Source: Planctomycetota bacterium
GTDB lineage: Bacteria; Planctomycetota; UBA1135; UBA2386
DNA length: 64,000 nucleotides
Direction: 5' to 3'
Assembly (NCBI GenBank): GCA_965228735.1
Contig: OZ245838.1
Span: 7,040,001 to 7,104,000, forward strand
Translations under genes and position numbers: made by a program
Notes under the pieces: generated by a model
What the model was told of the DNA's origin: nothing
The model's database searches: none
What the model saw: only the letters and a program-made list of their open reading frames with translations
Shown here: positions 39,462-55,696 of the stretch, piece by piece
Position numbering within the stretch: position 1 is the stretch's first letter
Layout of the letters: each line of letters begins with the position of its first letter

Positions 39462-41240
39462 TCAGCCGCCCCCATTCGAGCCAGCACCGTTCGAGCCAGC
39501 ACCGTTGGAGCCAGCACCGTTCGGGCCGGCGTTCTCGGTCCCGCCGTCGCTGGCGGCCGACGTGTCGTCCGTCGCCTCGTCGGTCTCCCCGGTCGCTTCC
39601 GCGTCGGGCAACATCGCGCCCGGCGGTCGCACGAGGTGGATCTCGTCGCCCTCTTCGATCCCGGCGGCGAGCGCGACGTGCGTCAGGTTGCTGCCGCCGA
39701 CCTCGACCGGGGTCGCGACCGGACCCTCGTCCGTCGCGAGCCACACGTAGTGCTGGTCGCGCCGGCGTTCGAGCGCCGGCAGCGGGATGTAGAGCACGTC
39801 CTCGAGATCGCCGACCTGGATGGTCACGCTCGCGTTCATCCCCGGCCGCACCGTGCCGTCCGAGTTGTCGCGGTCGAGCGCGACGTGCACCTTGTATTCC
39901 TTGACCTCGCGGCTGCGGCGGGTCGGCACGGGCAGCGTCGAGACCGACGCGACGTGCCCCTCGAAGATCTGGCCGGGGAATGCGTCCACCTTGATCGCCG
40001 CGGGCTGGCCGACGACGACCTTGTCGACCTGCGCCTCGTGCACGCGCAACTCCGCCGTCATCTTGCGGATGTCGGGCAGGATCACGATGTCCTGGCGCTC
40101 GCGGACCTCCATGCCCTCGTAGACCGGTTCGTCCCAGTCGTAGCGGCCGTAGACGACGAGCCCGGAGGACGGCGCGAGCATCACCGCGTGCTTCAGCTGC
40201 TCGTTCCAGTTGTCGAGGCGGTCCTTCGCGAGCTTGTATTCGGCCTCCGCGCTGATGAGCTCGGCCGATTGCTGCACCCGGCGGGCCTCGTTCGCGGCCT
40301 TGACGCTCTCGAGCCCGAGCCGCGCGTTGTCTTCCTCTTGCTTGAGGCCGATCAGCGTCTCGTGCAGCGTGAACTTGACGAGCAGCTGCAGGTTGTTGAG
40401 CGCGACCGTGACGCGGGAGCGGTTGCGCTTGTGGTTGATGCGGTCACGTTCGAGTTCGTTACGCGTGATGAACCCGTTCGCCGCGAGGTCCTTGCTGTGG
40501 TTGAACGTGTCCTGGGCGAGTGCGAAGTCGGCGCGGGCGAGGCTGATCTCGTCGATCTGCGTGAGCACCTGGTTGGCCATCTCGCCCATCTCGAGGTCGT
40601 AGGCCGTCTCGGACCCGAGAATCTCGGCGATGCGCGCGACGAGTTCGTCCGCGCTCCGCGCCGGCAACAGGTCCGTCATGCCCTCGACGGCGAACAGCGC
40701 CTCGAGTTCGTCGACCATCTGACGGTTGGTGCCCGCGTTCTCGTCCTCGTTCGGGCCGCGCGCGGCCTGCGACGTGCGGGCCTGGCCGAGGAACTTGCCG
40801 AGCTTGATGCGGGCGATCTTGAGCCGGCTCTCGGCGGTGCGTTCGGCCGCGAGCAGCTCCTTCTCCATCACCTCGTGGTTCTTGCGCGCCTGCTTCACCG
40901 CGGCGTCGGCCCGTGCGACGGCGATCGCCTGGCTGGCCTGCTTCTCCTCGATGAGGCTCGCGTCGAGCTCGGCGACCTTCTCGCCCGGCTCGACCACCGT
41001 GCCCTCCTCGATCAGGTAGATCAGCGTGTTGCGCCCCTCGAGGCGCGACACGACGCGCGTGTCGGATTGGGCCTCGATCTCCGCGCGTTCGCGCACGGTC
41101 ACGGGGAGCGTGCCGCGGGTCACGGTGTAGCGCAGTTGATCCGTCGCGGTGGACGTGTCATCGCACCCGGCGAACACGCCGACCAGGCAGGTGATGGCGA
41201 GCGCACGAGCCGGGGCTGCAATCGAAGCGGATTCGGTCAT
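39462..41240 (-). CDS. MacA/HlyD-like efflux periplasmic adaptor lipoprotein
   Basis: Lipobox FAGC; EEGTVVEPGEKVAELD, APSSGLVVY, VRPGMNASVTI. Confidence 0.88.
   Translation of the reverse strand: MTESASIAAPARALAITCLVGVFAGCDDTSTATDQLRYTVTRGTLPVTVRERAEIEAQSDTRVVSRLEGRNTLIYLIEEGTVVEPGEKVAELDASLIEEKQASQAIAVARADAAVKQARKNHEVMEKELLAAERTAESRLKIARIKLGKFLGQARTSQAARGPNEDENAGTNRQMVDELEALFAVEGMTDLLPARSADELVARIAEILGSETAYDLEMGEMANQVLTQIDEISLARADFALAQDTFNHSKDLAANGFITRNELERDRINHKRNRSRVTVALNNLQLLVKFTLHETLIGLKQEEDNARLGLESVKAANEARRVQQSAELISAEAEYKLAKDRLDNWNEQLKHAVMLAPSSGLVVYGRYDWDEPVYEGMEVRERQDIVILPDIRKMTAELRVHEAQVDKVVVGQPAAIKVDAFPGQIFEGHVASVSTLPVPTRRSREVKEYKVHVALDRDNSDGTVRPGMNASVTIQVGDLEDVLYIPLPALERRRDQHYVWLATDEGPVATPVEVGGSNLTHVALAAGIEEGDEIHLVRPPGAMLPDAEATGETDEATDDTSAASDGGTENAGPNGAGSNGAGSNGAGSNGGG
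39472..39531 (-). repeat. 15-bp coding tandem repeat x4 (AG[P/S]NG)
   Basis: ccgttcgagccagca-like units at the 3' end of the adaptor gene. Confidence 0.85.
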
Positions 41241-41421
41241 TCGGGGCCCAGGGAGTCTAGGCGAGGATCGCCGCGCGCGAACGCGGAGATGCGCGACCTC
41301 AAACCTGTTACATCATCGTCGGGGCCGTCGCATGGCGCTCGGATCCCCGCCGGTCAGTTGCCCGAACCGCGAGATCGTGCAACCTCACGGCGAGTCCGCG
41401 CGGAGTAGGCTCGTGCGGCCG

Positions 41422-44400
41422 ATGTCTCCCGAAGCCCTGTTTCGCCAGTATCGCGACTTCGGCGACGCCGAAGCGCTCGGGGCCGTGTTCGACCGCCTCG
41501 CGCCGGAGTTGGCGCTGATCGCGGCCCATCTCGTCGGCGCTGACGCAGCCGAAGACCTCGTGCAGGCGACGTTTCTCGATGCGATCGAGCAGCGTGATCG
41601 CTGGGATGGCAGTCGTCCGCTCGCGCCGTGGCTCGTCGGTCTGCTCGGGATGCACGTGCGGCGGGCCCGACGCGAACGCGGTCGGTGGCCCGACGCCGGG
41701 CGTCTCGGGGATCGCCGGTCGGACGTCGATGACCGCGACGGCCCGGCAGCAGCGGCGGTATCGCGGGACACGCTCGCGCTCGTCCGGCGCACGGTCGCGC
41801 AGCTGCCCTCGCACTACCGGACCGTATTGTCGCTGCGCCTCGTCGACGGACTCGAGGTGCAGGCCATCGCGCGCAGCCTCGGCGTGCCGCTCGGAACGGT
41901 GAAGGCGCGGCTGCATCGCGGTCTCGATCTCCTGCGACGGACACTGCCCGCGGGGGTCGCGGGAGCGGTGGCTGCGCTCGGGCTCGTCGAGCCCGCGCTC
42001 GGTGCGGTTCGGGCCGCCGTCGTCGATGCGGCGATGCGGCCTGGCGTCGGTGCCGGCGTCGGCGGCGCGGTCGGCACGGGCGTCGGGACATTGGCCGTGA
42101 CGGGAGCCTGGATCATGAAGCAGTGGATCATCGGGAGCGCGATCGTGCTCGTCGTGTTCGCGGGTTGGCTCGTCGTGCGGTCGGACGCGACGGAGCCGGG
42201 GCAAACCGAAGCCGGGTCAGCCAGTCCGGCCGGTGCTGCCACGGCGGCGCCCGGGGAGCGATCGTCGAACCCCGCGCCCGTCGCTGCGCCGGCCACCGTC
42301 GAACGTGCGATCGTGCCAGCCGCGACGCCACAGTCGCGACTGGGCGCGTTGCGCGTGGCCGTCGTGTGGCGTTCGGACGGTGCGCCGGTCGCCGGCGTGC
42401 AGGTCGAATTGTATCGGCACGGTCGGCGGCGTGCCGTCGACATCGCGCATAGCGCCGACGATGGGGTCGTGACCTTTGCGGACTTGCCGCCCGGTGACTA
42501 CCGGGCGAGCATCGTCGCGCTGCCGCATGCGCCGTGCGAGATTCGGATCGCAGCCGGGACCGCGATCGAACGCGAACTTCCGGTCGGCGGCGATGTGCGG
42601 CTGCGTGTTCTGGTCGCAACCGCGGACGGCGCGCCGTGGTCCGACGCGGCGGTGTGGGCCTACGATCACCTGGGTGGCCCCCTCGGCGGGCGACTGCTCG
42701 GGCGCACCGACGTCGCCGGGGTCCTCGAGTATCGCGGCCTGCCGCCCGCGTCCGTGTGGGCGCGTGCCGTCGGACGCATGCCGAGTCGACTCCACGCCCT
42801 GCCCTCGGACCTCGCGCGCGGGGCTCGGCCGTCGCCCACCGAAGTCCTGCTCGTTCTCGGTGGCTCGGGGGCCGCAGTGCATGGTGTCGTGACGGATCCC
42901 GACGGTCGGGTGGTCCCGGACGCGATCGTCGCGGTCGCCGTCGTGGACGAGTTCGGCGGCACGGACGATCCGCCCGAGGTCACGACGACGACGGACGCGG
43001 CCGGCCGCTTCGCGCTGTCGGAGCTGCCGGTCGGCGAGCGCAACATCGTCGCCACGGCGCCTGGGTTCGCGGCGATCGAGGCGCGGGTCGAGACGCTGGC
43101 CGACGAGGTCGCGTTCGTGCAGCTGCAGCTGCGGCGTGGTGCGAGCATCCGCGGTCGGGTGCGCGATGCCGGCGGCCGGCCGGTCCCGTCGTTGCCGGTC
43201 ACCGTGGGCACGGACGGCGGCGCCACCGGCATCCAGCGCCACGGAGGACGGTTGCGCACGACGCGGACCGACGAGGCCGGGGACTATCGGATCGACGGGA
43301 TCGTGCCGGGGAACGGCAGGGTGCTGGTGCATCTGCAGCCGGTCAGCAAGCGCGAGTTCGTGTTCGTCGATGGTGAGGCGTACGAGTTCGACGTGCAGCC
43401 GGCGCCCCGTGGCGCGATCACAGGCGTGCTCGTCGACGAGGACGGCGAACCGCTCGCGGGTTGGTCCGTGGGGGCCTCGAGTGGCAGGTTCGGCGCCGCC
43501 CCGTTCGCCACCGCCACCGATGCAGGCGGACGGTTCGAGCTCGCGGTTCCCGCCGGCCGAGCGTACGAGCTGCTCGTCTTCGCGCCGCGACAGGGCCACT
43601 GGACCCCGTTCTCGTCACGGCCCCGGCTCGCCGTGTCGGGGGTTTCTCCCGGGGGCGAGCCGATGCGGTTGGAGGTGCCGGACGCGGCGCTGGGCGATGC
43701 CGTCCTGCATGGCAGCGTCGCGCTCCCTGATGGCGAGGCGAGCCGCGCGTCGCTCGACCTGCGCGGGATCGTCGCGGGTAGTGCAGCCGTCGTGGTCGAT
43801 CGTGTCACGATCGCGGCGGGGGCGGCGCCGACGTTCCGATTCGAGCACCTGCCGCCGGGACGATACCGACTCGCGTGCGACTTCGGTGGCCGCGGTCGCA
43901 TCGTGCGTGACGACATCGTCGTGCGAGCGGGTGAGGAGCGCGAGCTCGGCCCGCTGGGCCTCGGGGGGCAAGTGCCGGTTCGCTTGCGGTTGCGGCGCCC
44001 CGACGGTGCACCGGTGACCGGCGCGAGCCTGCGGCTGGTGCCGGGTTGGATCGCGCTCACGGAGTCGCGCCCCGGAGAGTACGAATCTGCGCCGGTGCAG
44101 CTCGGGCGGTTCGAGGTTTCGGCGTTCGGGCCCGGGATCGCCCCGGCGAAGTGGACCATCGATGTCGGTGATGACACGCCGATCGATCACACGCTCGCAA
44201 CGGCGTCGACCGTCGAGTTCGTGATCTCGCCGCGGTCCGAGCGCAAGTCCTGGCGCGGAACGCTCGCGATCGAGCTGCGCGCGACCGGCCCGCGGCCGCT
44301 CGTCCAGGCGATCGTCACTTTGCCCGGTGACCCGATGTACTCGTGGTCGCTCGGGCTGCTGCCGGGCACGTACACGCTGAACGTGCGTGACAACCAGGGC

Positions 44401-44463
44401 AGCGTCGAGCGCACGGTGACCGTCGGCGCCGGCGCGCAGCGGTTCGACGTTCCGTTGCGCTGA
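41422..44463 (+). CDS. ECF sigma factor with TM helix and extracytoplasmic carboxypeptidase-regulatory-like repeats
   Basis: AEDLVQATFL, LGVPLGTVKARLHRG; TM helix; repeated G.V.D..G.PV / TD..GRF motifs. Confidence 0.85.
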   Translation: MSPEALFRQYRDFGDAEALGAVFDRLAPELALIAAHLVGADAAEDLVQATFLDAIEQRDRWDGSRPLAPWLVGLLGMHVRRARRERGRWPDAGRLGDRRSDVDDRDGPAAAAVSRDTLALVRRTVAQLPSHYRTVLSLRLVDGLEVQAIARSLGVPLGTVKARLHRGLDLLRRTLPAGVAGAVAALGLVEPALGAVRAAVVDAAMRPGVGAGVGGAVGTGVGTLAVTGAWIMKQWIIGSAIVLVVFAGWLVVRSDATEPGQTEAGSASPAGAATAAPGERSSNPAPVAAPATVERAIVPAATPQSRLGALRVAVVWRSDGAPVAGVQVELYRHGRRRAVDIAHSADDGVVTFADLPPGDYRASIVALPHAPCEIRIAAGTAIERELPVGGDVRLRVLVATADGAPWSDAAVWAYDHLGGPLGGRLLGRTDVAGVLEYRGLPPASVWARAVGRMPSRLHALPSDLARGARPSPTEVLLVLGGSGAAVHGVVTDPDGRVVPDAIVAVAVVDEFGGTDDPPEVTTTTDAAGRFALSELPVGERNIVATAPGFAAIEARVETLADEVAFVQLQLRRGASIRGRVRDAGGRPVPSLPVTVGTDGGATGIQRHGGRLRTTRTDEAGDYRIDGIVPGNGRVLVHLQPVSKREFVFVDGEAYEFDVQPAPRGAITGVLVDEDGEPLAGWSVGASSGRFGAAPFATATDAGGRFELAVPAGRAYELLVFAPRQGHWTPFSSRPRLAVSGVSPGGEPMRLEVPDAALGDAVLHGSVALPDGEASRASLDLRGIVAGSAAVVVDRVTIAAGAAPTFRFEHLPPGRYRLACDFGGRGRIVRDDIVVRAGEERELGPLGLGGQVPVRLRLRRPDGAPVTGASLRLVPGWIALTESRPGEYESAPVQLGRFEVSAFGPGIAPAKWTIDVGDDTPIDHTLATASTVEFVISPRSERKSWRGTLAIELRATGPRPLVQAIVTLPGDPMYSWSLGLLPGTYTLNVRDNQGSVERTVTVGAGAQRFDVPLR

Positions 44464-46977: not shown

Positions 46978-48198
46978 CTACTTCGCGGCGGTCTCGACGC
47001 GGCGCAGCGCGATCCCGAGCGGCTTCGGCCCCGGATCACGGTTGCGCTGGTTGAAGCGCCACGCACCGCGCCGTTCGCCGACGGCGACGAGCTCGAAGCT
47101 CTCGAAGTCGCCCGTCTTGCTGTGCCAGCGTGACCGGCCGTAGAGCGTGGCGCGGTAGCCTTGCTGGCCGGCGTCCATCACGGCCTCGCCGCGATACTCG
47201 ATCGTCCAGACCGAGCGCTCGACCGCCGTTCGTTGCATGGTCAGGGTCGCGGTCTCGATGTGCTGCTCGCGCCAATGCGGCGCCTGGCCGCGAACGTTGT
47301 CGACGAGCACCTCGCGATAGAGCCGTCGCACGACCTCGTCGTCGACCGGTCGGGGTTTCTTGCTCTTCGTCACGAACACCTTTGGGTCGTCGAACGCGAT
47401 CCAGTTGCGGTTCCAGGCCCACTTCACGAACTCGGTCCAGTTGCGGTCGTCGAAGCGGTTGCGCTGATATCGGCGCACGGACTCGGGGTCGTCCATGCTC
47501 GCGAGGTCGCGCAATGAAACGGCGAATGCGAGCGCCTTGCCCTCGATGTCGGGCGGCATCACCCGGTCGGCGACCGGCACGGGCGCGTTCTCGTAGCCGC
47601 GCCGCTGGCGCAGCTTCTGCCAGCGCTGCAGCGCCCGGCGCAGGCGCTCGCGCATGTCCTCGCGGTCACCGCCGGCTGCGAACCGCCCTTCGAGATACTC
47701 GGCGTCGGGGCCGATCATGTAGATGCCCTGTTTGGTTCCCGGGTGGTTCCAGTCACCTTCGGGCATCGACTCGCCGTACTTGCGGAAGAAGCGGTGGGTC
47801 GGATCGTTCGCGATCCGCTGCACGTGCTGCGGGTTCTCGGGGTAGAGCCCGTAGGCCTCGTCGGCGACGGTGACGAACTCTCGGCTGAGCTTCTGGATCT
47901 CCGGGTCTGACCAGACCAGTTGGCGTCCGCGGACGCCGTTGTTTCAAGTGCAGCCGAGCGGGTGGCCGTTCATCGTCCAGAGCAGGATCGGGCGACCGAG
48001 CTCTCTGGCCTCCGCGATCGCCGGGCCGAGCCGGTTGCGCCAGCCGACCTGCTGGAACGACAGCTCGAGCTCGTCGGGCTCGATGGCCTCGAGCCAGTCG
48101 TCGAGGTTCTTCGGTCCGAGGGTGGGCAGCTCGGTTTGCGCGATGCTCGGCGATGCCAACGCGAACGCCAGCGCCACTGGCGACAGTGCGATCCTCAT
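46978..48198 (-). CDS. Secreted thioredoxin-like selenoprotein candidate (GCT-U, Sec85)
   Basis: Signal peptide; W...AIAEARELGRPILLWTMNGHPLGCT-TGA(47944-47946)-NNGVRGRQLVWSDPEI, open in frame for 321 more codons. Confidence 0.8.
47904..47937 (-). promoter_or_regulatory. Candidate SECIS region
   Basis: mRNA after UGA: GGCGUC-CGCG-GACGCC (+7..+22), then GGUCU-GGUC-AGACC (+27..+40). Confidence 0.55.
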
Positions 48199-52324: not shown

Positions 52325-55300
52325 TTACCGCACGACGAAGTCGCGTTCGATCTCGGTGCGGCTCGCCGGGATCGTGAGAGGTTGATCACGCAGCGGCTGA
52401 CCCATGCCACGTGAGATCGCGATCGTGTAGCTCGGGCCGCGGGTCAGCACGATGCGAAAGCGGCCGTCCTTGCCCGTGCTCTGCCAGCCGCTCACGGGGT
52501 GGAGTTCGAGCGTGCCGCCGTGCTGCGGCACGTGCGTTCGGCCGCCGACGATCGCGCTGCCGACCGGCTTCTTGGCATTGTCGATCGTGCGACCCGTGAC
52601 CGTGACCTCCTCGCGACCGACGTAGCGGCCGTCGCGGAACGGCACGAGGTCGATTCGCACCGGCGTCGGATCCCGGCTCGGCAGCGCATCGCAGCGGAAC
52701 CTTTGTTTTTCGAACGGATTCCGCACATGCACGTACCGAGCGTTCGGGTCGGCGTGGAACGTGAGCGCCTGTTCGCGGGCGTCGAGGCCCTCGGCGCGGA
52801 AGCGCCCCTCGGCATCCGTGCGCACGCTGACGGTCGTGCCGTCCTGCCCTTGCCCATTCACGTAGACCCGCCCGTTCGCCAGCGGCTCGCCCGCGACGGT
52901 TACGACGCCCGCTACGGCGAGTCCGGTCCAGCGCAGCGTGAAGACGTATCCCGGCTGCGCGTCCTTCGGCAGCTGCAGTGACCAGCGGCGGCCGTCCGGC
53001 GCGGTCACGTACAGGTAGGCCTCCGGCACGAGATCCAAGGGCACGCTGCCGTCCGCCCCGACGTCGACCGGCTCGTGATCGGGAAGCTGCGCCGCGGACG
53101 CGCGGGCGCGGAAGCCCTGGAACCCGCCATCGGGCCCTTCGCCGGCGAACGCGAGGAACGGGCGGATCGTCGGGTTGGCGGGAATCCGCAGTTCAACGAC
53201 AGGTCGTTCGCCGGCCGCGGCTTCGATGGTCTCGACGATCGCACCGACCCACGAGTGCTCGGCTGCCTGCCGCGGCGCAAAGACCTTGAGCTGGCCCGGG
53301 GCGAACGGGCCGAGTACGGCCTTGCCGGTGGCGTCGGTGCGGGCGCGCCGCTGCTGATGATCGACGGTTCCGATGGCGACGTTGTGATCGGCGCGCGGCT
53401 TGCCGTCCGGGCCGACGACGTGGACCTCGACGTGCACGGCGCCCGCGAGGTCGATCACGCGGTCGTCGTCGTCAGCCGCCACCGCTACCGCGAACTGCGC
53501 TTCGCAGAGCTCGCCGACGAACACCTCGCACAGGTAGTTGCCGGCCGGCGCCGTGAGCTCGAACTGGCCCTCGCTCGTCGTAGTCGCCGCGTCGATCACG
53601 CACTCGGTGTTGTGCTGCCAGTTGAGCTGATTGAACGGGCGCAGCTGCACGTTGGCGCCGGCTACCGGGTCCGTTCCACGCACGACGCGGCCCGCGAAAC
53701 GGGCCGGCGCGCCGGGTTCGAGCTGGACCTCGTGCGGCTGCAGGTCGGCGCCGAAGAGCTCGATGCGTTGCAGGACCGCCGGCCGATACCCGTCGGCCCA
53801 CACCGTGACATCGAGCTGACTCGGAAACACACCGCGATGCTCCCGCGGCATCTCGAGCACCTGCTGCGCCCGGAACGGCGCGAGCGCGAACCAGCCGTCC
53901 TCGGCGTGGAACGTGCCGGTGTGTCGCGGCGTGCCGTTGTCGTCCGCCGAACGGATTCGGATCGTCTCGATCGGTCGCCCGGTCGCCTTGTCCGTGACAT
54001 GGATCCGCGCCCCGCCCCAACGCGTCACGTGCACGGTGCCCGCCTCGTCGGTCGACAGGCTCGTCGACGTGATCCAGCGTTGCCCGTTCTGCTTGATGAT
54101 GTTGCGGGTCACGGTCCACCCCGGCGTGAGGCACGTGACGCTGACGCTCGTTGCGCCGACCCGCGCCGTGAAGCGGCCCTTGCCGTCGGTCTCCGTGAAC
54201 CACTGGCCGCCCTCGCCTTCGAGTCGGAGCCGCAGCGGTTCGGGGACCAGTTGTTCGTGGTCGGTGAGCACGAACCCGACGAGCTCGCGCACGGGCCACA
54301 GGCTGATCGTGAGGGCCGCGTTCGTCGCGCCGTCCGTGCTCGTGGTCGAGCGGACCACGCCGAACCGCGGGCCAGAGGTTGGGTCACCCTCGAACGCGAA
54401 CCGGCGCGGCGCGCGGCCGTCGGCGCGGGCCTCGACCACGACGCCGGTCAGGGGGACCGGCAGTGCGCAGCGGCCGTCCGAGTCGGTCGTGCGGCGCAGC
54501 AGCGCTGGCTTGGTCTCGTCCCGAGGCGGCACGAGGAACGGGTGCTCGGCGCCGCGCAGCGTGACGTCGAGGGGCAGGTCCCGTGGGATGCGAACGGATT
54601 CGCCGAGGTCGTGGGGGATGCCGGTCGCACCCATCTGCGTGGTGCCGGCGAGCTCGCGCTGCAGCTCGAGCAGCGTGAGCTCGCGGGGGCCGAACAGCGC
54701 GAGGTCGGCGCCTTCGATCGGCTGTCTCGTCACGCCGTCGATCACCTGCACGTCGAGAGTCCAGGCCGCTTCGACGACGGCATCGACGACGGGGGCGGCG
54801 ACGCGCTCGGCGGCCGCGGGTGTCACGTTCCGGTCGCTGGCGCGCTTCGGCGTCGACGGCTCGACGGACGCCGGGGTGGGGGCGGGTGCCGCTACGTGAT
54901 CGGTCCGTGGCGTGTCGCTCTCGCCCGGCCACCAGGCCACGCCGAGAACGGTCACGCAGACGGCGACGAGCGCTGTGAGAACGACGGTTTGCTTGCTCAT
55001 GACGATTCCCAGAACGGTGATGCCGGCGCCCGTTGCGGCGACGGCGCCCGCGGCCGCCTTGGCCGCGGTGAGGCGCGCGCCGGCGGCGATGACCTCGGTG
55101 CGGATCGCGGCGAGCCCGCGCGTCGCGGTCATCGCGGTCGCGGCGAGGGCGGTGGCGAGTCCCGCCGGCAGCGCGCGCCGCGCCATCTCGAGGCCGCGGT
55201 GGATCTGCGAGCGCACGGTCGCCGGGCTGCGGTCGAGGACGAGCGCGATCTCGGCCGGCTCCATGCCGTGCACGAGGCGCAGCAGGGTCGGCTCGCGGAA

Positions 55301-55696
55301 CGGTTCGCGCAGGCGTTCGATCGCGTTGCGGGCCGTGTCCGACAGTTCGCGGTCCGCGACGCCGTCGGCCGGCTGCGGCTCAGTGCCCGAGACCTGATCG
55401 CCGTCCGCGCCGAGGTCGGGCGAGCGTCGACTGCGGCGACGCTCGCTCTTGGCCCGGTTGGTCAGGATCCCGGCAAGCCACGGCGTGACGGACCGCTTGC
55501 CCTCGAAGCGGTCGGCGCTCTCGATGGCGGCGAGGAACGTGTCCTGCAGCAGATCTTCGGCGGCGGCGACGTCGCGGGTCAGGTGCGACGCGAGGCGCAG
55601 CAGCTCCGGCGCGACCCGGTCGAACAGCTTCGCGAGGGCGTCGACCTGATCGCGGTCGCGCCAGCGCAGAAACAGTCGGGTCGCTCGGTCTCGCAT
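52325..55696 (-). CDS. ECF sigma factor with TM helix and carboxypeptidase-regulatory-like repeats
   Basis: AAEDLLQDTFL, ATVRSQIHRGL; TM helix; repeated TD..GRF beta-sandwich motifs. Confidence 0.85.
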   Translation of the reverse strand: MRDRATRLFLRWRDRDQVDALAKLFDRVAPELLRLASHLTRDVAAAEDLLQDTFLAAIESADRFEGKRSVTPWLAGILTNRAKSERRRSRRSPDLGADGDQVSGTEPQPADGVADRELSDTARNAIERLREPFREPTLLRLVHGMEPAEIALVLDRSPATVRSQIHRGLEMARRALPAGLATALAATAMTATRGLAAIRTEVIAAGARLTAAKAAAGAVAATGAGITVLGIVMSKQTVVLTALVAVCVTVLGVAWWPGESDTPRTDHVAAPAPTPASVEPSTPKRASDRNVTPAAAERVAAPVVDAVVEAAWTLDVQVIDGVTRQPIEGADLALFGPRELTLLELQRELAGTTQMGATGIPHDLGESVRIPRDLPLDVTLRGAEHPFLVPPRDETKPALLRRTTDSDGRCALPVPLTGVVVEARADGRAPRRFAFEGDPTSGPRFGVVRSTTSTDGATNAALTISLWPVRELVGFVLTDHEQLVPEPLRLRLEGEGGQWFTETDGKGRFTARVGATSVSVTCLTPGWTVTRNIIKQNGQRWITSTSLSTDEAGTVHVTRWGGARIHVTDKATGRPIETIRIRSADDNGTPRHTGTFHAEDGWFALAPFRAQQVLEMPREHRGVFPSQLDVTVWADGYRPAVLQRIELFGADLQPHEVQLEPGAPARFAGRVVRGTDPVAGANVQLRPFNQLNWQHNTECVIDAATTTSEGQFELTAPAGNYLCEVFVGELCEAQFAVAVAADDDDRVIDLAGAVHVEVHVVGPDGKPRADHNVAIGTVDHQQRRARTDATGKAVLGPFAPGQLKVFAPRQAAEHSWVGAIVETIEAAAGERPVVELRIPANPTIRPFLAFAGEGPDGGFQGFRARASAAQLPDHEPVDVGADGSVPLDLVPEAYLYVTAPDGRRWSLQLPKDAQPGYVFTLRWTGLAVAGVVTVAGEPLANGRVYVNGQGQDGTTVSVRTDAEGRFRAEGLDAREQALTFHADPNARYVHVRNPFEKQRFRCDALPSRDPTPVRIDLVPFRDGRYVGREEVTVTGRTIDNAKKPVGSAIVGGRTHVPQHGGTLELHPVSGWQSTGKDGRFRIVLTRGPSYTIAISRGMGQPLRDQPLTIPASRTEIERDFVVR

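Follow-up and report, generated by a model that had tools for sequence, protein, structure and literature searches.

A minus-strand gene in the window (the whole 64,000-nucleotide stretch of Planctomycetota DNA analyzed here) was found to encode a member of a real selenoprotein family that is absent from the annotation libraries and from the 2026 catalogue checked, even though a selenoprotein with a thioredoxin fold is in itself of a known kind. The in-frame UGA of this gene is almost certainly decoded as selenocysteine (Sec), and both domains of the encoded protein, a thioredoxin-fold domain and a C-terminal beta-sheet domain, are probably homologous to those of selenoprotein N (SELENON).

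The reading frame and its internal TGA codon

The gene occupies a single 406-codon frame on the minus strand (ATG at 48198, terminal TAG at 46980-46978) with a lone internal TGA at codon 85 (47946-47944; Table 1). The preliminary description had regarded the split open reading frame as one gene mis-annotated as two, and the homologs bore this out, as almost all of them have both halves in one frame rather than as separate genes in other frames or at other loci; gene callers split the frame everywhere, and database homologs (261-332 amino acids, query coverage 64-78%, 120 matches listed) have the length of the downstream piece. The context of the TGA was as first quoted, with the upstream part in frame with the open reading frame at 46978-47823, and third-position GC was 0.9 on both sides of the TGA. 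Contigs of four public runs covered the TGA site with zero differing letters; as these runs may include the source sample, this agreement argues only against an assembly error. A gene for a PMT_2-type glycosyltransferase (Pfam) ends 17 nt upstream of the ATG, and a scan for promoters and terminators gave results at chance level. The signal peptide proposed earlier was also recognized by us, as the first 20 residues look cleavable by eye and homologs have similar hydrophobic N-termini; the protein is very probably exported.

Table 1. Features of the selenoprotein gene and its predicted product (positions in the window)
Feature	Positions	Strand	Basis
Full gene, 406 amino acids with TGA read as Sec	46978..48198	-	Reading frame and homologs
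Likely cleavable signal peptide, residues 1-20	48139..48198	-	By eye; homologs also begin with a hydrophobic stretch
Thioredoxin-fold domain of DsbD-gamma/AGR/Thioredoxin_7/UAS type, residues ~47-199	47602..48060	-	Structural matches of model residues 25-177
Cys83, sole Cys here; not present in all family members	47950..47952	-	Sequence and homolog sites
In-frame TGA, codon 85, predicted Sec, where the helix after strand 1 begins	47944..47946	-	Alignment and model
First hairpin after the UGA, in close relatives only	47922..47937	-	GGCGUC-CGCG-GACGCC
Candidate SECIS hairpin with GGUC loop; the closing Ser codon, TCA, is rare	47904..47917	-	GGUCU-GGUC-AGACC
C-terminal antiparallel beta-sheet domain, residues ~222-402, probably homologous to the upstream beta region of SELENON-type proteins	46993..47535	-	Models and profile match

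Selenocysteine decoding

The preliminary description had made a Sec reading dependent on the presence of tRNA-Sec and SelB; the genome was found to hold tRNA-Sec (76.6 bits), SelB (336.6 bits), SelA (454.3 bits) and SelD, whose own gene contains a TGA, with all of these matches exceeding the curated cut-offs. TGA is also the commonest ordinary stop of this genome (1971 of 3003 long ORFs), which indicates that the genetic code is standard; a code change, with TGA read as Trp or Gly, was ruled out on this count.

Coding conservation was observed on both sides of the TGA, with N86, N87, G88 and V89 being near-invariant. Three paralogs in the genome (27-34% identity) have a TGA at the identical site, and homologs, often with several copies per genome, were found in 89 of the 301 phylum genomes searched; among the database matches listed, the close ones carry the labels Planctomycetes and Fimbriimonadaceae. 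We aligned 54 sites (loci L021-L074, i.e., top-ranked matches as well as four loci chosen for absence of a stop), which showed TGA in 48 cases, Ser in 3 (including one gene counted twice), Cys in 2 (including L057; one of the two is a generic thioredoxin hit), one poorly aligned site, and never TAA or TAG. Among 150 representatives, 27 cross the site in one frame (10 with Cys, 9 with Ser and 8 with other residues), while 9 are short proteins that terminate exactly at the motif. The Cys counterparts that had been expected at the TGA thus exist, both at L057 and in 10 of the 27 unsplit representatives, and Ser, Asp, Gly, Ala and Asn forms also persist among the homologs.

SelA was present in 85 of 85 genomes with a TGA form as compared to a background of 221 of 301 genomes, an association that is overstated by its p-value, as kin genomes are not independent. 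Two family genomes were without SelA; one (G142) has the Ser form and the other (G148) a copy without the N-terminal part. Outside the phylum, two genomes with a TGA form were checked, one of which (G401, a 2.8 Mb MAG) had no SelA match, and among 151 genomes searched from the phylum of G402, a single one matched the family profile.

The CxU motif noted in the preliminary description is present in this protein (C-T-U, with Cys83) and fails as a family signature. A Cys at position -2 was found at 42 of 50 TGA sites and is thus optional, which makes CxU common in the family without defining it. All 7 TGA forms without this Cys have a Cys elsewhere, and a second Cys follows strand 2 in 29 of 47 TGA forms.

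At the nucleotide level, the focal gene (window 47933-47981) and its 27%-identical paralog C1:4855623 have in common a nearly identical stretch of approx. 40 bases that surrounds the TGA. In all four paralogs, the codon before the TGA is ACT, a rare Thr codon, and a T before the TGA was also seen at three other Sec sites of the genome. Tandem copies were observed at L181 (G221:C37) and L180 (G108:C42); in G221, a TGA form adjoins a Ser form.

Both of the hairpins described earlier downstream of the TGA do exist; the first was seen in close relatives only, and the GGUC loop of the second begins 32 nt past the UGA. The accessible part of PMC13188914 gives a SECIS model with G in the first two loop positions, a distance of 16-37 nt after the UGA, a stem of 4-16 bp and an energy of at most -7.5. 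The loop, spacing and 5-bp stem of the second hairpin fit this model; the hairpin alone has an energy of -4.7 kcal/mol, and the 50-nt region folds no better than shuffled sequences (z = -1.29; 23 of 200 shuffles as stable). The TCA codon that closes the hairpin represents 3% of the Ser codons in the genome. Most homologs have an alternative stem with an RGUNN loop located approx. 9 nt closer to the UGA, and the two registers, which were defined post hoc and of which B occurs mostly in one clade, are nearly exclusive (A only in 30, B only in 10, both in 1 and neither in 6; n = 47). SECIS covariation, which had been suggested as a check, was not above shuffles in either register (397 of 500 and 72 of 500 shuffles as high, percent paired). 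The GGUC hairpin is a plausible candidate for the SECIS.

Domain folds and relatives

An AlphaFold model based on a 109-row alignment (pLDDT 95.5, pTM 0.92) placed U85 at the nucleophile position after strand 1 (model residue 63, directly before helix 64-73), in agreement with the earlier view that the TGA sits at the thioredoxin active site. Model residues 25-177 matched 3f9u (Z 12.4, rmsd 2.1, 108 aligned), 2lst (Z 10.8) and AGR3 (3ph9; Z 10.8), and the same fold is found in DsbD-gamma, DsbH, DUF255, AGR2-AGR3 and UAS (Z 9.6-12.4 over 104-131 residues). The designation as Thioredoxin_7-like was thus confirmed for the fold, although Pfam detected Thioredoxin_7 in only 7 of the 109 homologs aligned (E = 0.002 at best) and not in the protein itself. 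The protein sequence had no hit in Pfam, NCBIfam or PDB. When the profile was compared to PDB sequences, U85 was aligned with the active-site Cys of AGR2 in weak matches (E = 0.67-1.1), the best of which (E = 0.67) is not significant alone.

Compared to DsbD-gamma/AGR-type folds, the focal protein has a longer loop before the nucleophile, an extra beta domain and Sec, and it lacks a CxxC; as its motif is U-N-N-G, with no Cys at +3, there is no UxxC either. The alignment suggests that Q157-G158 (T-x-Q-G) apparently replaces the thioredoxin cis-Pro, which speaks to some extent against a purely catalytic role. The acidic residue E114 at the end of strand 2 is conserved in 50 of 51 sequences. Residues ~222-402 form a long antiparallel sheet (pLDDT 87.7 when folded alone), in which R230-D231, N263, D300, Q305, R376, N383 and R385 are near-invariant polar residues. 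A fold search with this domain alone yielded generic barrels (best Z 7.4) and no Foldseek match at E 0.001; such weak matches show neither a new nor a known fold. A PDB sequence match of the beta-domain profile was rejected as a chance hit.

With a natural Cys homolog as query, Atlas ranked the cluster "Selenoprotein N" second (0.91, 194 of 256 features; a lead only), while the beta part alone retrieved only unnamed bacterial clusters. A metagenome motif scan yielded 41 loci, from which 12 frames were aligned, 11 of them long and eukaryote-type and one bacterial-type; the label "SELENON-type" used here is based on the SCUG motif, as defined in the accessible part of PMC12839072, and on EF-hand hits in the two frames tested (L126 and L146), and not on named SELENON records. 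With the bacterial-type frame as query, 11 more were found in 401 phylum genomes, with 10 readable as a beta domain followed by a C-U thioredoxin domain. These bacterial SELENON-type genes (L148 and L152-L162, i.e., from 11 of 401 phylum genomes and a metagenome) gave no EF-hand hit in the two proteins tested. The bacterial and eukaryotic SELENON-type sets, which share no rows, match across 335 columns (E = 2.4e-68).

The resemblance to SELENON noted in the preliminary description proved to be homology at the profile level. The thioredoxin profile of the family matched the bacterial SELENON-type proteins with E = 3.6e-8 and with Sec aligned to Sec, as compared to E = 3e-4 for the mixed SELENON-type set and E = 0.038 for the eukaryotic rows alone; as the latter match is weak, the link to SELENON runs via the bacterial forms.

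The C-terminal domain, previously called uncharacterised, indeed has no clear PDB match, but it and the beta region located before the thioredoxin domain of SELENON-type proteins are probably homologous (E of approx. 1e-4, with controls far lower). The beta profile of the family matched this region over 114-134 columns (E = 2.7e-4, and 1.3e-4 when trimmed; hhalign probability 42-70%), with scores of 34.0 and 36.8 as compared to maxima of 18.1 and 22.6 for 57 unrelated family profiles. Not one of 240 column or block shuffles reached the observed score of 32.5 (best 30.0), and the reversed profile scored 15.5. The SELENON-type beta HMM in turn matched one family member, P0198, with E = 8e-7 (among 292). 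The match was weaker with mixed profiles (E = 0.005-0.04) and not significant against the whole eukaryote-dominated SELENON alignment (E = 0.32 and 0.37).

A quick thioredoxin-domain tree (built from 94 rows and 146 columns, with A4 sampled at every second row), which is tentative due to its long branches, placed the family in a long-branched clade of its own (SH-aLRT 99) and separated the family, the SELENON-type and the LDDEFCU-type proteins from 14 other Trx7-like proteins of the genome (SH-aLRT 96). The LDDEFC-TGA genes represent a second, uncatalogued Sec-thioredoxin family, with a member in this genome (C1:2546238, plus strand; L075) and clear Sec/Cys alternation across 28 of 201 phylum genomes. 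The thioredoxin domain of C1:2546238 is closer to SELENON than that of the focal gene (E = 3.5e-14), and the protein shows no beta-domain match.

The focal protein, SELENON and the bacterial SELENON-type proteins have in common a domain of the Thioredoxin_7/UAS type in which the Sec residues align and a Gly follows at +3; they also share a predicted extracytoplasmic targeting, and their beta-sheet domain is probably the same. It is likely, however, that the domains occur in reversed order, i.e., thioredoxin-beta here as compared to beta-thioredoxin in SELENON-type proteins. Where SELENON-type proteins have SCUG (accessible part of PMC12839072), the focal family has C-T-U-N-N-G. Moreover, the EF-hand of eukaryotic SELENON, which was detected in L126 and L146, was found by Pfam in none of 109 family members, the N-terminal membrane anchor of SELENON is absent by eye, and, unlike in SELENON-type proteins, there is no Pro at the cis-Pro position. 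As neither SCUG nor an EF-hand is present, we regard the focal protein as a SELENON relative with reversed domain order and not as a SELENON member. On balance, it seems probable that the family belongs, as a domain-permuted branch, to a large bacterial SELENON superfamily that is itself uncatalogued, with Sec as the default and Cys as the exception, which exists in Planctomycetota beside beta-thioredoxin orthologs and thioredoxin-only forms.

Catalogued bacterial thioredoxin-fold selenoproteins (Trx7/PDZ NF041199, VPGUxxT NF041382/3, Sec.1 CxU, TlpA UGC and deiodinase-like) resemble the focal protein in having an in-frame UGA in a thioredoxin fold and a downstream hairpin. The focal protein and two paralogs gave no NCBIfam or Pfam hit, including NF041199, NF041382 and NF041383, while the same procedure, as a positive control, recovered NF041383 on another gene of the genome (E = 1.6e-66). 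For the Sec.1 family (CxU; representative WP_232817751.1), the comparison covered the Pfam profile PF13192, which matched none of the 109 family members with E of 0.1 or below. An in-frame TGA marks the active site in further thioredoxin-like genes of this genome, i.e., C1:3235945 (plus strand), near 5497250 (plus strand), 6694255 (minus strand), near 7165765 (minus strand) and near 4263613 (minus strand); two of these five were scanned, and 6694255 was identified as VPGUxxT (NF041383), whereas 3235945 gave a weak hit only.

Full-text literature searches retrieved no paper describing the focal family or a bacterial SELENON. A doctoral thesis reportedly deals with a SELENON ortholog from Poribacteria, and no such paper was found in the literature search; bacterial SELENON orthologs may already be known. 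In the accessible parts of the sources, Table 1 of PMC13188914 (119 families; the 2026 catalogue) has no entry with the focal architecture or for bacterial SELENON, and the family is unmentioned in PMC13326102, PMC12013277, PMC13745706, PMC4807772, PMC7474598 and PMC12839072, the supplements of which could bear on novelty. As Cys forms are rare, searches with Cys queries would tend to miss the family.

Proposed function and significance

We consider it rather probable, as the best explanation of the data as a whole, that a single Sec gene encodes a likely exported two-domain thioredoxin-fold enzyme whose selenol acts on oxidised Cys of a specific envelope substrate. SelB would read the GGUC hairpin, allowing the UGA to be read through as Sec, and the signal peptide would direct the protein through the Sec export route to the periplasm. 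The selenol of U85 would then attack a disulfide or sulfenic acid on the substrate to form a Se-S intermediate, and would so reduce or rearrange the oxidised Cys, as proposed for selenoprotein N; invariant polar residues of the beta domain would select the substrate. Because there is no Cys at +3, the Se-S bond would be resolved by Cys83, by another Cys in the family or by an outside thiol. Periplasmic location and oxidoreductase activity are thus predictions from sequence, and the chance of a thiol-disulfide reductase or isomerase action in particular is somewhat better than even. A purely catalytic reading is weakened by the 17 of 27 unsplit homologs that have no Cys at the site.

Alternatively, the same selenoprotein might act on a small molecule held between the domains (by deiodinase-type dehalogenation, or by peroxide or metal(loid) chemistry), which we regard as unlikely. 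The C-T-U spacing with its optional -2 Cys and the conserved acidic residue of strand 2 (E114) are reminiscent of deiodinases, as is the second Cys after strand 2 of the resolving cysteines of glutathione peroxidases, and the lack of CxxC and cis-Pro as well as the abundance of invariant polar residues on the beta domain would also be in line with such a role. The top structural matches, however, are DsbD-gamma/AGR-type thioredoxins (a deiodinase is not among the listed fold matches, which does not exclude such a fold), the closest profile relatives are SELENON-type, and neither the T4_deiodinase (PF00837) nor the GPx Pfam profile matched any of 109 members with E of 0.1 or below.

We also investigated the gene neighbourhood across 26 loci, which revealed no conserved neighbours or electron donor apart from an ECF sigma factor, located upstream on the same strand, at 4 loci (L171, L175 and L176, from three genomes of family f56, and L169, from G157). 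At the f56 loci, a long unannotated gene lies between the ECF sigma factor gene and the family gene, and could be termed an anti-sigma factor by position only. The PMT_2-type glycosyltransferase and the topoisomerase upstream in the window are not common to other loci. The window also contains, on the plus strand, two paralogous 1100-amino-acid proteins (41149-44463 and 52325-55696) that have ECF-sigma-like N-termini, as judged by eye, and long C-terminal regions. Fusions were observed as well; in P0172, P0175 and P0177 the whole two-domain module forms the C-terminus of Ser/Thr protein kinases, and P0188 carries a fused SecDF P1 head domain.

It is conceivable, albeit quite improbable, that the module serves above all for binding or sensing in the envelope under the control of a redox switch, and Sec would then represent this switch rather than a turnover catalyst. 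The three kinases (with a hydrophobic stretch between kinase and module in P0175), the ECF sigma factors and the persistence of Ser, Asp, Gly, Ala and Asn forms are consistent with this possibility, and the accessible part of PMC7474598 presents SELENON as a sensor with a coupled redox activity. On the other hand, the sigma linkage is limited to 4 of 26 loci, mostly kin, and nearly every free-standing copy retains Sec, which would be costly for a passive binder. Finally, that the TGA is a real stop (separating two coupled genes or marking a pseudogene) or a Trp or Gly codon can hardly be maintained, as the ubiquitous splitting by gene callers and the statistically weak SECIS are set against a thioredoxin fold that would be cut at its active site, the 48 of 54 sites with TGA and none with TAA or TAG, the SelA in all 85 TGA-form genomes, the existence of Cys homologs and the ordinary use of TGA as a stop.

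Overall, our analyses describe a family that is widespread (89 of 301 phylum genomes) yet unlisted in the libraries and the 2026 catalogue checked, and link a probable bacterial envelope protein to SELENON, a human myopathy protein of poorly defined chemistry. They suggest that the SELENON beta region is a mobile domain that accompanies thioredoxin in either order. According to the accessible part of PMC7474598, SELENON was without a solved structure in 2020; the bacterial SELENON-type genes (L148 and L152-L162) are probably the best models for human SELENON, and with soluble forms from bacteria, the structure, the trapping of substrates and the part played by the beta domain become directly accessible to experiments. 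If the proposed relationship is true, soluble proteins of 380 residues would open a route to the unsolved structure and chemistry of SELENON, and the catalytic core of SELENON would be an ancient bacterial envelope module.
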